Shown: positions 4,333 to 42,334 of the stretch, in pieces | Position numbering within the stretch: the first letter of the stretch is position 1 | Layout of the letters: every line of letters starts with the position of its first letter | Assembly (NCBI GenBank): GCA_951406725.2 | Contig: OX597837.1 | Coordinates: 46,624,001 to 46,688,000, forward strand | DNA: 64,000 bases | Direction: 5' to 3' | Origin: Octopus vulgaris | Taxonomy: Eukaryota | The notes under the pieces: generated by a model | Told to the model about the DNA's origin: nothing | What the model saw: the letters and a program-made list of their open reading frames with translations, nothing else | Databases searched by the model: none | Position numbers and translations under genes: made by a program

Positions 4333-4362
4333 TGTTGTTTTTTTCTTTTTTTCCAGGTGAGT
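4333..4362 (+). promoter_or_regulatory. Recursive splice site RS1 (zero-length exon / ratchet point)
   Basis: tgttgtttttttctttttttccAG|GTGAGT: a long pyrimidine tract with the acceptor directly abutting a consensus donor, on the gene strand. A cryptic donor GTAAGT lies at 4444. Confidence 0.7.
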
Positions 4363-4959
4363 GAAATATTATTTTACCATATTTTAAAATAAAATATGAT
4401 CTAAGTGAGGAGGGTCTTTCTTACATCACTGAAAGATGGTACTGTAAGTATGGTTATATTTTCTTTATAAGTTCTCTGATAAATGGCATCACATCCTGTA
4501 CCAATTATTCTTTAGCAAACAACAAATGAGGAATCAGGAATGCAAGATTTGAACACTTGCAAAAACATACACAAAACAATTCTGTGGAATTAAAGAAAAT
4601 CACAAGTTATTTCTGCAACTTGTTGGTGTGCAATGTAAGCTGTATATAAACGAGTATGTGTATGTGTGCATGTATGCATACTTGTATATGTACATATTTG
4701 AATGTGTAGGGGGTAGAAATATGCATTTGTATTCAAGTATTCCATAAATAAGCAAGCATTTAAACAGGAATATATTGTCACGAGTGTCTTACCTCTGGGA
4801 TATCTTAGGTGTACGTGTGTATATACATGTGTGTGTGTGTGTGTGTGTGTTGTGTATGTGCTTGCATGTGTGTATGCATATATTTATATGTATATGCTAG
4901 TGTGTGTGTCTGTGTGTATTTTTCTTTTCTTTTGTGTTTCATTCATTAAACTGCAGCCC

Positions 4960-5165
4960 ATGGTGATCATATCTCACCACCTCATCCCATGTCCTCCTGG
5001 GTCTACCTCTTCTACAGGTTCCCTTCACAATTAGACATTGGCACTTCTTTATGTAGCTCTCCTCATCCATACCCATCGCATGACCATACCCGCATAGTCT
5101 CTCCTATTGCACACAATATCTGATGCCTCTGTTGCACATGCACACTGACATTGCATGCAATCAAC
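4960..5165 (-). mobile_element. RTE LINE ORF C-terminal fragment
   Basis: Minus strand reads RGIRYCVQ*ERLCGYGHAMGMDEESYIKKCQCLIVKGTCRRGRPRRTWDEVV, the RTE-type C-terminus. Confidence 0.75.
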
Positions 5166-5228
5166 AAATAAAGTGTGTAAACATACATGAATATGTGTGT
5201 CTGTGTGTCCCCCTTCTCCACTGATACT

Positions 5229-5459
5229 TATTTCTTTATTGCCCACAAGGGGCTAAACATAGAGGGGACAAACAAGGACAGACAAAGGGATTAAGTCGAT
5301 TACATCGACCCCAGTGCGTAACTGGTACTTAATTTATTGACCCCGACAGGATGAAAGGCAAAGTCAACCTCGGTGGAATTTGAACTCAGAACGTAACAGC
5401 AGACGAAATACCGCTAAGCATTTTGCCCGGTGCTAACGATTCTGCCAGTTCGCTGCCTT
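5229..5459 (-). mobile_element. tRNA-derived SINE family A (Nin/Deu-domain-like), near full length
   Basis: A/B-box head followed by the gcctttcatcct..ggggtc.ataaattaagtaccag core. Other copies at about 3320-3465(+), 3735-3955(-), 3990-4150(+), 8150-8360(+), 25087-25300(+), 40185-40420(+), 53810-54015(+). Confidence 0.85.
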
Positions 5460-5547
5460 TACTGATACTACCACCCCCACCACCCCCTTCATTGTCATTG
5501 AGCCAATGAGCAAATAATCAGTGTTGCTCTGTTTTCCCATACTAAGT

Positions 5548-37894: not shown

Positions 37895-38260
37895 AATATA
37901 TATGCTTCTATTTATATATATATATATATGTGTATATATGTATATGTATATATATGTATATGTATGTGTGTGTGTGTATATATATATATATATATATATA
38001 TGTATGTATGTATGTATGTATGTATGTATGTATGTATGTAAGTATATATATGTATGTATGTATATATATGTATGTATGTATATATATGTATGTATGTATA
38101 TATATGTATGTATGTATATATATGTATGTATGTATATATATGTATGTATGTATATGTATGTATGTATATATATGTATGCATGTATATATATGTATGTATG
38201 TATATATATGTATATATATACGTACATACATGCACATGCATGTGAACACACACACACAAA
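37895..38260. repeat. (TA)/(TATG) microsatellite with an 18-bp minisatellite (tatatatatgtatgtatg)
   Basis: Direct periodicity in the sequence. Confidence 0.9.
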
Positions 38261-39379
38261 AGTATGTATATGTATTATTAGATATACATCTATGTGTGTT
38301 CACTCTTTCATAGAACATACGCCAGTACGACTGAAATGTTTTCTTTCGTGCTAATTCCACAATAATTAATAATTATGCTTCACTTTTGATGTCTTAACGA
38401 TCTATCAATGAAGTGGACTTGATTTCACTAATTCTTTCATTGTGAAATGTTCTATAATCATTTCTGCATTCTCAAGGAACTGACCGTACACGCATGTGTG
38501 CACAGTCTCACACACACACACACACACACACACACACACACACACACACACACACACACACACACACGTTCTGCTTGAATATGTTTTGTGTGTGTGAATT
38601 TATTAAATGTTTTTGCATATTGTTTTTATATTGATTATGTATCATATATCTGTAGATATGTATATTTTCAGATTTACACACACACACACACATATATGTG
38701 TGTATCTATAGACATATATGTATGTGTGTATATATATATATATATTTACATACACACACACATATACATACATATACACATGTGTGTATGTATGTATATA
38801 TATATACACACACACACTTTTACATATATATACACACACCCACTCACACACACACACACACAAAATAGTATTTTAGTCATAAATTAATGTTTGAATGAAC
38901 TGAGAAAGTATTATCCATATCTAAGCTCATTTCTGTCGGTCATAGTGATGAATATGAGAAGTAGGATCATAAAGATAAACTTAAGATGTGTCATAATACT
39001 TATATTTATAAGGTTTTTCTTCTTTTAATTATATTTAATTAATCTCATTGTCTTTCTGTATTCTTTCTGTTTTTATAAAAAATTTAAGAAATTAGTTTTC
39101 CTTTTTTTTATCATTATCTTTATCATTCTCAATAAACGTTATTACTCTAAAGAAATCAGTGTTTCAAAATTGACAAACGAGATTATCGTTAATGTTATTA
39201 ATTCTTGCAATGTTTATTTATGGTTCTTTTCATTCTGAGTTCAAATCCCTCTGGTACTGAATTTGCCTTTTATCTGGTTAGGGTCGATTAAATAAGTAAC
39301 AGTCAAGTGCTGGGGTCAACTGAACCAACTGGTTCCACTTCCTAGTTCTTGTAGCCATGAGCAAATGTTAGAAACTATT

Positions 39380-39915
39380 TGGATGGCATTCTGATTTAAG
39401 CACCACAGATGTCTTCTCGTAACTCTTTTTAGTTTGGGGAATTTTCAGAAAATCTTTGCAAATTTTGTTTTACACCCAGGAACTCACACGATTATGCAAA
39501 AGAAACTTATTTTTAAACCCCCTCCCAACCCCCACCACAACCTGTAAATCCTAAAAGTTCCACACTTTTTTGAATTTTCTTTTTGAAATCAGTGTTTAAA
39601 ATACGAAGAGTCCGAATACTTAAAACTCAGTTATTGGCTACCCTTGGGTACATCATCATTCCATTAAATGTGTTTATGAAGAGAAAAAAATATTGAGAAA
39701 CATCAATGTCAGTAATGAAGAAATAAGGAAGGTATCAGGTGGTCATGAAATGTGCTAAAAACAATAGTTAAAATCATCCTTAAATCACACGCAAAGATTT
39801 TTCCTTTTTTTTTGCATAATGTAGAAACACATTTGTAAAAATTTTCTGAAAATTCCAAAATATAAAAAAAGTTACAAGGGGGTTATATGGGGTGCTAAAA
39901 ACAGAATTCCGCCAT
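39380..39915. mobile_element. MITE / foldback element with diverged TIRs of about 95 bp
   Basis: attctgatttaagcacc..gtaactcttttt..ggaattttcagaaaat (39387-39475) is complementary to attttctgaaaattcc..aaaagttac..ggtgctaaaaacagaat (39820-39910). Confidence 0.65.
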
Positions 39916-40909
39916 TATTTTGTCCTGGTAATGATATTCTCCATTCATCCCTTCCTGGCGCAATAAAAGAAATTGTTATTGTTCTTCCCTCTGATCATTT
40001 ATCATTTCATTGTTGTTCTGCTTGTATTAAATTGTTAGATGTCAAACTGCATCCCACAACCACAATGTGATGTATCTGTGCCATTCCTCATAGTTCCGAA
40101 GAATCAGGACATTCACCCTGATATCCAACATCTTTAATCGTTTACATTTCTTGCCACAGTCCCTAAAGTTATTGTAATTGATATAATGACAATTATTTTC
40201 AAGACAGCGAGCAGGCAAAATCATTACCATTCCAGACAAAACGCTTAGTGGCATTTTGTCTGTCTTTACGTTCTGAGTTCATATTCTGCTGAGGTTGGCT
40301 TTGCCTTTCATCCTTTCAGGGTCAATGAAAATAGGTACCAGTTGAGCACTGGGGTTGATGCAATGGACTTGCCTTCCACCTTTGAAATTACTGACCTTGT
40401 GCCAAAATTTGAAACCACTGGTGTTATTATTGTTTTTATTATTATTGAGCGAGAGAACAGTGAATGCCTTCAAAGTGACACTGGGGTACAAATATACAAA
40501 TCCCAATATGTCCATCATGACTCCTTCTCTGATAAGGGTAGACCAGGCACGTGCATTACAATCAAACGTGTGCAACATGGTGTCTCTCTTATTGGGATAA
40601 ACAGCTTATGACTTTGCACATGTGGCTCAGAATTGTCTTTAGGTTGAGTAGGCCATCCTGCTCAAAAATCCCTCAATAAGGGCTGTTTTACGTCAGTATA
40701 AAACAGGTAAAATATTTTGGCCAGATACGGCCGGTTTAAATGCTTCACCATTTTTCTTCTCACTCTTTGCTATCCAAGTTCAAATCCCACCTTGGTTAGC
40801 TTTGCCTCTCATCTTTCTGGACTTGATAAAATAAAGTACCATCATTGTATTTGCACCTTTGTATAGTTCATTATTTCTAAATGTCATCTATAATTATCAT
40901 TTAAATAAA

Positions 40910-40951
40910 CTATTAACCAAATTTTTCTTTTTCTTTCTTTTGCAGGTAAGT
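40910..40951 (+). promoter_or_regulatory. Recursive splice site RS3
   Basis: Branch-like tattaac, then atttttctttttctttcttttgcAG|GTAAGT (perfect consensus). A cryptic donor GTGAGT lies at 41025. Confidence 0.8.
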
Positions 40952-42334
40952 TTTATTGAACACAAAAGTTTGTTTTAAAAAATTTCAAAATCCAAAAAAA
41001 ATGTGTTTGACGTAAAACAAGTTGGTGAGTAGAATAATTTCTTTTTACCTATTGGCCATTCTTTGAACAATGAAGCTTTCATTGTCAGTTGCAGAGCATT
41101 CTGATTCTTCTGCAAGGGCACTATTTTCAAGCAAGCTTTAGAGGTTCTATTTAATGATATCAACCGTAGTGATCTTGTGTGTGTGTGTGTGTGTGTGTGT
41201 GTGTGTGTGTGTGTATATATATATATATGTACACACAGACACAATCTGGCATGCTACAGTATATATATATATATATATATATATATATATATATAGTTAA
41301 TCCAAGCAAGAAAACACAAAAAAACACGAGGACGTGGAACAAATAAAGTATTATTGGACGCTCAGGAAAGAAGGGAAGAAGGAGGGGTTAACGTTTCGAG
41401 CGGAGCTCTTCGAGGGAAACATAGGAGAAGGAAAGATCCCGAGAAGGGTACACACACTCACACACACACACACACATGCATGCAATCTGCCATGCTACTA
41501 CACTGTTCAGGGTGGCTGAACAGGTGCTGTACCTTGCCAAAGTGCAGCCCATAACTATGCAGGACAGTCGTCACTCCATGAGCTATTTTCAAAATACCCG
41601 TACACCCAAGTCTTTTTTATCTTATCCCTCTGCACTCATATTTTTGCTATTTGCCTTGTGCCTTCAATTCAAAGACACCCTGTGGGTATTTACTCCGTAC
41701 CTGTTTGTTCTTGACTTACACGTCAGTCTCATGCCAACCACCCAATCTGTTTTCAGTCATATTTCTTTACTTTTATTTATTTAATTTTTTAATGTCCCAT
41801 TTGTTTCCAGTTGTGAAACTTACCTACATATTGTTTTTCTTTTTTAACCTGGGTGCTTTACAGACGAGTGATATCAACACTTGCTAAAGATGCCAAGTAT
41901 AGGTCTGGAACCATGGAGGATTATGTTCAAATTGGAAGGCCCTCTTCACTTTCCATTCTAACTAATGTTTCTTAACCATTTTTAACCTTTGGACTCCTTT
42001 GATTTTACACCCCTGTTTTACTAGAATGCACCCCCTCCTAACCATCTGATGTTTCAAAAAATCATATATTTTCATAGTTAAATATATTAGGAACTCTTTT
42101 TACTTGCTTCAGTCACCAGACTGTGGCCATGCTGGGGCACTGTCTTGAATTTTTACTCAAAAGAATCAATCCATGTACTTATTTTATTTTTATTTTAAAT
42201 CCTGGTACTACTTCTATTGGTCTCATTTGCCAAACTGCTAAGTCACAGGGATATAAACACCAACACCGGTTGCTAAGCAGTTGTGAGGGACAAAGACACA
42301 CATACATCTATCTATTTATCTATCTATCTATCAT

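Follow-up and report, generated by a model that had tools for sequence, protein, structure and literature searches.

Recursive splicing in other animals and probable ratchet points in the octopus ELKS gene

Long introns can be removed stepwise at ratchet points, sites where a splice acceptor is fused to a splice donor. Such splicing, termed recursive, is a known mechanism with documented cases in flies and vertebrates; for other insects and the sea urchin there are hints at the level of motifs. Here, we analyzed a window of 64,000 nucleotides (nt) from the 2.8-Gb genome of Octopus vulgaris (assembly GCA_951406725.2, contig OX597837.1, labeled C24, positions 46,624,001–46,688,000 of the forward strand). 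An earlier note, made from the letters of this window, had proposed three recursive splice (RS) sites, RS1, RS2, and RS3. All three sit inside the first coding intron (111,475 nt) of the synapse gene ELKS/ERC (hereafter ELKS) on the + strand, and we consider it probable, from their sequence and that of similar sites across the genome, that RS1 and RS3 are ratchet points.

The closest described systems are those of flies, vertebrates, other insects, and the sea urchin. Flies have more than 500 ratchet points, with cryptic RS-exons of about 50 nt that are generally out of frame and are suppressed by donor competition, and nine fully suppressed recursive sites are given for mammals (PMC8605326). 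Recursive segments in flies span about 9–15 kb, and first introns and downstream donors are enriched (PMC6110457). A survey of insects and the sea urchin found ratchet-point sites 4- to 22-fold enriched over the opposite strand and no enrichment in vertebrates (PMC2773006). The donor regenerated at such a site consists of the preceding exon's last 3 nt and the RS-exon's first 6 nt, and thus depends on the preceding exon; the seven species treated in the accessible text include no mollusc (PMC6224609). Flies, mice, and humans are named for recursive splicing in PMC13149111, and the accessible text of PMC9282427 mentions octopus ELKS, not recursive splicing. We found no report of recursive splicing in a mollusc in the literature searched, a search that had most subscription papers and all supplements outside it.

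The octopus sites resemble the Drosophila ratchet points of Ubx, kuz, and Bx in having a tandem acceptor and donor in a long, first intron (PMC8605326; PMC6110457). They resemble Drosophila RS-exons in having a donor about 50 nt downstream, in being out of frame or carrying stops, and in having a ratchet donor stronger than that of the RS-exon. They differ in that the predicted octopus segments are 69.5, 36.6, and 5.4 kb rather than the typical length in flies, and in being known from sequence alone. As with vertebrate RS-exons (PMC6224609), the donor would be set by the upstream exon used, and the host is a neuronal gene whose intron is very long. In contrast to the few suppressed sites of mammals, strict motif matches in the octopus genome number at least 115, and the enrichment of the class is fly-like. 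Our evidence is like that of the insect and sea urchin survey in being at the level of motifs, with enrichment of similar order, whereas the accessible text of that survey has no mollusc and no test of downstream donors, both of which are included here. If our reading is correct, exon-defined ratchet points would extend to the third bilaterian branch, either from an old origin or by convergence with intron growth. The 115 listed positions are open to test by existing total-RNA data.

RS1 and RS3 are the strongest candidate sites in the intron

Mapping of the full protein to the genome placed ELKS on the + strand with 17 coding exons, the one at 46343–46729 having 98% identity to ELKS of O. bimaculoides. 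This agrees with the earlier assignment of the three sites to the gene strand. The relevant features are as follows (plain numbers are window positions, C24 marks contig positions, and a slash marks a splice junction).

End at C24:46,558,867, + strand: ELKS exon 1a, the first coding exon, with donor aag/GTAAGA.
4338..4362, + strand: RS1, a 17-nt pyrimidine run and CAG acceptor (AG 4355–4356) abutting GTGAGT, 69,489 nt past exon 1a.
4357..4443, + strand: 87-nt long form of the putative RS1 cryptic exon, with donor act/GTAAGT at 4444 and in-frame TAA at 4390–4392.
4357..4404, + strand: 48-nt short form of the putative RS1 cryptic exon, with donor taa/GTGAGG at 4405 (+48) and the same TAA.
40913..40951, + strand: RS3, a 20-nt pyrimidine run and CAG acceptor (AG 40944–40945) abutting GTAAGT, with a branch-like TTAAC at 40913–40917.
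40946..41024, + strand: putative RS3 cryptic exon, 79 nt, with donor ttg/GTGAGT at 41025 and in-frame TAA at 40976–40978.
46343..46729, + strand: ELKS coding exon 2, 387 nt, phase 0-0, at the 3' end of the long intron.

The junctions quoted previously, ccAG/GTGAGT (4356/7), acAG/GTAAAA (7870/1), and gcAG/GTAAGT (40945/6), are exact. The matrices used to score sites came from ELKS itself (16 acceptors and 16 donors). The acceptor and donor scores were 16.6 + 7.9 for RS1 and 15.9 + 9.1 for RS3, and both acceptors scored above all 16 real ELKS acceptors, the best of which reached 12.7. The two sites were the best of the 702 AGGT sites in the intron (341 sense, 361 antisense), and no site at their level occurred in 820,618 nt of background made up of antisense strands and control loci. 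The AG-free zones are 54 nt at RS1 and 79 nt at RS3.

The downstream donors of the earlier proposal are also in the letters, namely GTAAGT at 4444, which defines an 87-nt exon with a frame-0 TAA, and GTGAGT at 41025, which defines a 79-nt frameshifting exon. In addition, the RS3 exon has a TAA at codon 11 besides the frame shift, and RS1 has the +48 donor, absent from that proposal, which gives a length matching the genome-wide mode. The RS1 stop is codon 12 in both forms. Inclusion of either exon would thus introduce a premature stop, as expected of a poison exon. Splicing from exon 1a would regenerate AAG/GTGAGT at RS1 (score 11.4) and AAG/GTAAGT at RS3 (12.5), compared with 4.5–6.0 for the cryptic exons' own donors. 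Both sites therefore have the sequence features of a ratchet point: a fused AG/GTRAGT on the sense strand of a long intron, scores above those of controls, and a weaker donor downstream.

By analogy with flies, we propose that the strong acceptor and the donor 48–87 nt downstream would define a cryptic exon. Exon 1a, which ends in AAG, would be spliced to RS1, and the regenerated AAG/GTGAGT would outcompete the cryptic exon's own donor and be spliced to RS3, giving AAG/GTAAGT. The last 5.4 kb would then be removed to exon 2, so that the intron would leave in pieces of 69.5, 36.6, and 5.4 kb with no trace in mRNA. If one of the two cryptic exons were included by accident, it would bring in a premature stop.

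A genome-wide class of sites with the same layout

The motif TTT-Y11-N-CAG/GTRAGT occurs 44 times in the genome (36 GTAAGT and 8 GTGAGT), RS1 and RS3 included, compared with 0 and 1 in reversed controls. Control hexamers after the same tract were rare, with 12 matches over the three hexamers HTAAGT and 9 over the six hexamers GVRAGT (1.5–4 per hexamer). GTNNNT after this tract gave 431 matches over 64 hexamers, a count that is inflated by one CCAGGTTATT repeat-like family. Genome-wide, full GTRAGT donors were 9–15 times enriched directly after such acceptors. With a shorter tract there were 62 GTAAGT matches versus 42 over three GVAAGT hexamers. At the rate of the class, the probability of two sites on the sense strand of this one intron is about 4e-7; at the control rate it is about 1e-8.

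A preference for YAG is a property of acceptors. The base at –3 of the class sites is C in 44, T in 29, A in 4, and G in 2 (CAG, TAG, AAG, and GAG, respectively), and since it is mostly C or T the profile is acceptor-like. This profile rules out an origin of the class in donors that end U-rich exons. A repeat family as the source was also rejected; an all-against-all BLAST of the 44 flanks gave matches essentially across the motif only.

Two observations on repeats were made in these searches. Many matches to GTNNNT read ...CTTTTCCAGGTTATT and likely come from a single repeat family bearing an acceptor-like motif. Two TAG/GTGAGT sites on different contigs (L080 and L095) have common flanks and the same +54 donor, so that pair at least is repeat-derived.

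For downstream donors, we examined the flanks of 44/44 CAG sites, 26/29 TAG sites, and, of 30 taken from the 62 short-tract matches, the 19 that were new. The controls were 9/9 GVRAGT, 5/12 HTAAGT, and 29/42 GVAAGT sites (30 were taken and one apparent duplicate removed). GTRAG at +20 to +100 was present in 21/44 CAG, 12/26 held-out TAG, and 6/19 short-tract sites, with local backgrounds of 8%, 8%, and 13%. Pooled, this is 39/89 versus 4/43 in controls (P 3e-5), or 37/87 without the ELKS sites. The cryptic exons so defined have a median length of about 50 nt and no frame bias (11, 14, and 15 in the three mod-3 classes). Frame-preserving coding microexons were ruled out, with a length of 3n and an open frame found in 8/39 only. 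The branch motif CTRAY was enriched in the CAG set (9/44, background 7%), not significantly in the other sets.

Among the 115 distinct sites there were 17 neighbor pairs within 400 kb, compared with 1.9 expected, and 16 of the 17 were on the same strand; the 63 control sites gave 2 such pairs. Across C24:46,494,000–46,764,000, the T–A skew is negative upstream of ELKS, turns positive at the gene start, and is positive throughout the gene, and in the octopus genome it can serve to mark the direction of transcription. An excess of T over A favored the motif strand at 68/89 class sites versus 18/43 controls. Because neighbors share a strand and the skew favors the motif strand, the class sites are likely in sense orientation within long transcription units. 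From the layout of the sites and this class, the octopus likely splices recursively too, and fly-like recursive splicing with cryptic exons of about 50 nt is highly probable as a genome-wide feature of its giant introns.

Five same-strand sites (L062, L063, L098, L099, and L064) lie 37–120 kb apart at C13:4,468,663–4,805,399. All five start GTAAGTAC, have cryptic exons of 45–55 nt ending AG/GTA, and are alike beyond the search motif. They may be a series in a giant intron or duplicated sites. A protocadherin cluster, considered as their host, was rejected; no convincing coding frame was found in the portion examined of the 150 kb sampled.

Several points weigh against reading RS1 and RS3 as ratchet points. 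The search patterns were drawn up after the two sites had been seen, and the matrices draw on a single gene, with its 16 acceptors and 16 donors. The looser search for D-AG/GTRAGT gave 35 matches compared with 24 in its reversed control, which is a weak contrast by itself. Fewer than half of the sites (39/89) carry a GTRAG donor in range, and within the class a host gene is identified for the ELKS sites only. RS1 and RS3 have modest downstream donors, and no YTRAY branch motif is present at RS1. The motif statistics speak for selection on the class, not for the use of RS1 and RS3.

An alternative first exon and the transcript evidence

Two further ELKS exons lie in the window.

28587..28610, + strand: coding end and donor of alternative first exon 1b, with MLSRLW at 28587–28604 and donor GTAAGT at 28605.
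63604..63702, + strand: ELKS coding exon 3, from protein mapping.

MLSRLW followed by RQSSLGKE is the start of P0130 (XP_036368899.1, O. sinensis isoform X3) and of P0147, from a more distant protein cluster; a third ELKS protein has MLGKLW ahead of exon 2. The copy at 28587–28604 is the sole full match to MLSRLW within 264 kb. Exon 1b, absent from the earlier note, is thus an internal first exon, and it implies an internal ELKS promoter. RS3 is 12,341 nt past exon 1b and 5,397 nt ahead of exon 2. Since exon 1b lies between RS2 and RS3, RS3 alone is common to both transcript forms, and transcripts from exon 1b would use RS3 only, in steps of 12.3 and 5.4 kb. After exon 1b, RS3 would regenerate TGG/GTAAGT, which scores 7.6 versus 6.0 for the RS3 exon's own donor. 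This margin is narrower than that after exon 1a, so there is room for partial inclusion.

For human genes, Sibley is reported to have described in 2015 an RS-exon switch that depends on the promoter. A similar addition to the class is conceivable for RS3, with its exon skipped after exon 1a (AAG/GTAAGT) and the 79 nt partly kept after exon 1b (TGG/GTAAGT), and on the sequence we consider it unlikely. With the RS3 exon included, the MLSRLW frame would run for 16 codons before closing, and the Met that comes next is that of MDNMK in exon 2. Such a switch would yield either decay or a shorter ELKS starting at MDNMK. O. sinensis isoform X4 (P0124; XP_036368900.1) begins at this first Met of exon 2, and its 5' part is therefore without an in-frame start. 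Another non-coding first exon accounts for isoform X4 equally well.

We compared public transcript contigs from four of 21 listed runs, all of which consist of contigs, with window positions 40000–47000; contigs of this kind drop rare forms. In 4/4 runs, one contig of 3.5–3.8 kb covered 46337–46730 with one differing letter and had about 1,210–1,230 letters before it. The six letters before exon 2 have 1 mismatch to the end of exon 1a and 3–5 to exon 1b or the RS exons. They thus fit exon 1a, indicating that the main mRNA joins exon 1a to exon 2. The RS1 and RS3 segments are absent from the main mature mRNA, with rare forms lost in contigs. Contig depth in the bin 40936–41169 was 0.25, 5.61, 0, and 0 in the four runs. 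Among the joints and loose ends listed, none was at 40946 or 41024; repeat-derived contigs fill the tables, with 228 joints and 2,238 loose ends beyond those listed, and this result bears neither way on intermediates.

In another reading, on which these data bear as well, regulated poison or alternative cassette exons begin at RS1 and RS3 and enter a share of the mRNA in some tissues, in place of sites of zero nucleotides that are always skipped. Both have an acceptor, a downstream donor, and an in-frame stop, and the weaker RS3 donor after exon 1b and the start of isoform X4 would fit as well. However, the main contigs pass directly from exon 1a to exon 2, and the regenerated donors are far stronger after exon 1a. 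There is also no insert at the junction of exons 1 and 2 in 32 octopus and related ELKS proteins, where a stop-bearing exon would not show. Taken together, we regard regulated inclusion as improbable.

Could RS1 and RS3 be unused decoys or chance matches in a T-rich intron? Strict matches do arise by chance, at the rate of the control hexamers, and RS1 adjoins a shorter (ATT)n run with an (ATT)17 tract 150 nt upstream. The rank, strand, co-occurrence, and downstream donors of RS1 and RS3 argue against this, as do their non-repetitive flanks; the RS1 flank had a single match in a genome DNA search, and depth beside RS3 was near zero where repeats give thousands. We therefore consider chance quite improbable for these two sites.

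A further reading is that unannotated last exons, or exons of a nested non-coding transcript, start at the RS1 and RS3 acceptors and that the GT after AG is incidental. This fits the great strength and AG-free zones of the acceptors, and the collections contain proteins that end after exon 1a or exon 2, although they do so by reading into the intron next to it. It leaves unexplained both the GTRAGT enrichment after such acceptors and the second donor about 50 nt on, and is very improbable.

RS2 is at the level of background

7851..7876, + strand: RS2 as flagged, an interrupted tract with acAG/GTAAAA, at background level and not supported.

Chance fits RS2 well. All three sites had been said to follow long pyrimidine tracts, which holds for RS1 and RS3, with 15 and 16 pyrimidines at –20 to –5, and fails for RS2, where the tract is interrupted (11/16). 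The reading of the sites as ratchet points with RS-exons divides in the same way, as RS1 and RS3 have the top ranks and a genome-wide class of their layout, and RS2 is at chance level. RS2 scored 9.0 + 3.8, which is weak on both halves and lower than the best antisense site of the intron. Sites of its level occurred 4 times in the background, or 0.54 expected per 111-kb intron length. There is no GTRAG donor within 100 nt downstream of it. Genome-wide, its donor type GTAAAA gave 13 sites compared with 23 in the reversed control, and a downstream donor accompanied 1/13. On its score, its tract, and the lack of a GTAAAA signature genome-wide, we rejected RS2 as a ratchet point; its sequence makes such use doubtful, and it is likely a chance match.

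Other candidate sites and features

In ELKS intron 15 (22.8 kb), the candidate ttttcag/GTAAGC at C24:46731240 (L018) scored 9.7 + 8.6 and had no equal in the 820-kb background. It is without a good downstream donor, and some isoforms skip the next exon or enter it at an alternative acceptor. Two weaker sense candidates, ctcag/GTCAGC at C24:46601568 and tacag/GTAATT at C24:46569078, lie in the 69.5-kb first segment of the long intron. Elsewhere in the window, an open frame at 53384–53629 (+ strand) resembles a fragment of a mariner-type transposase (HPPYPPDLAPTDY).

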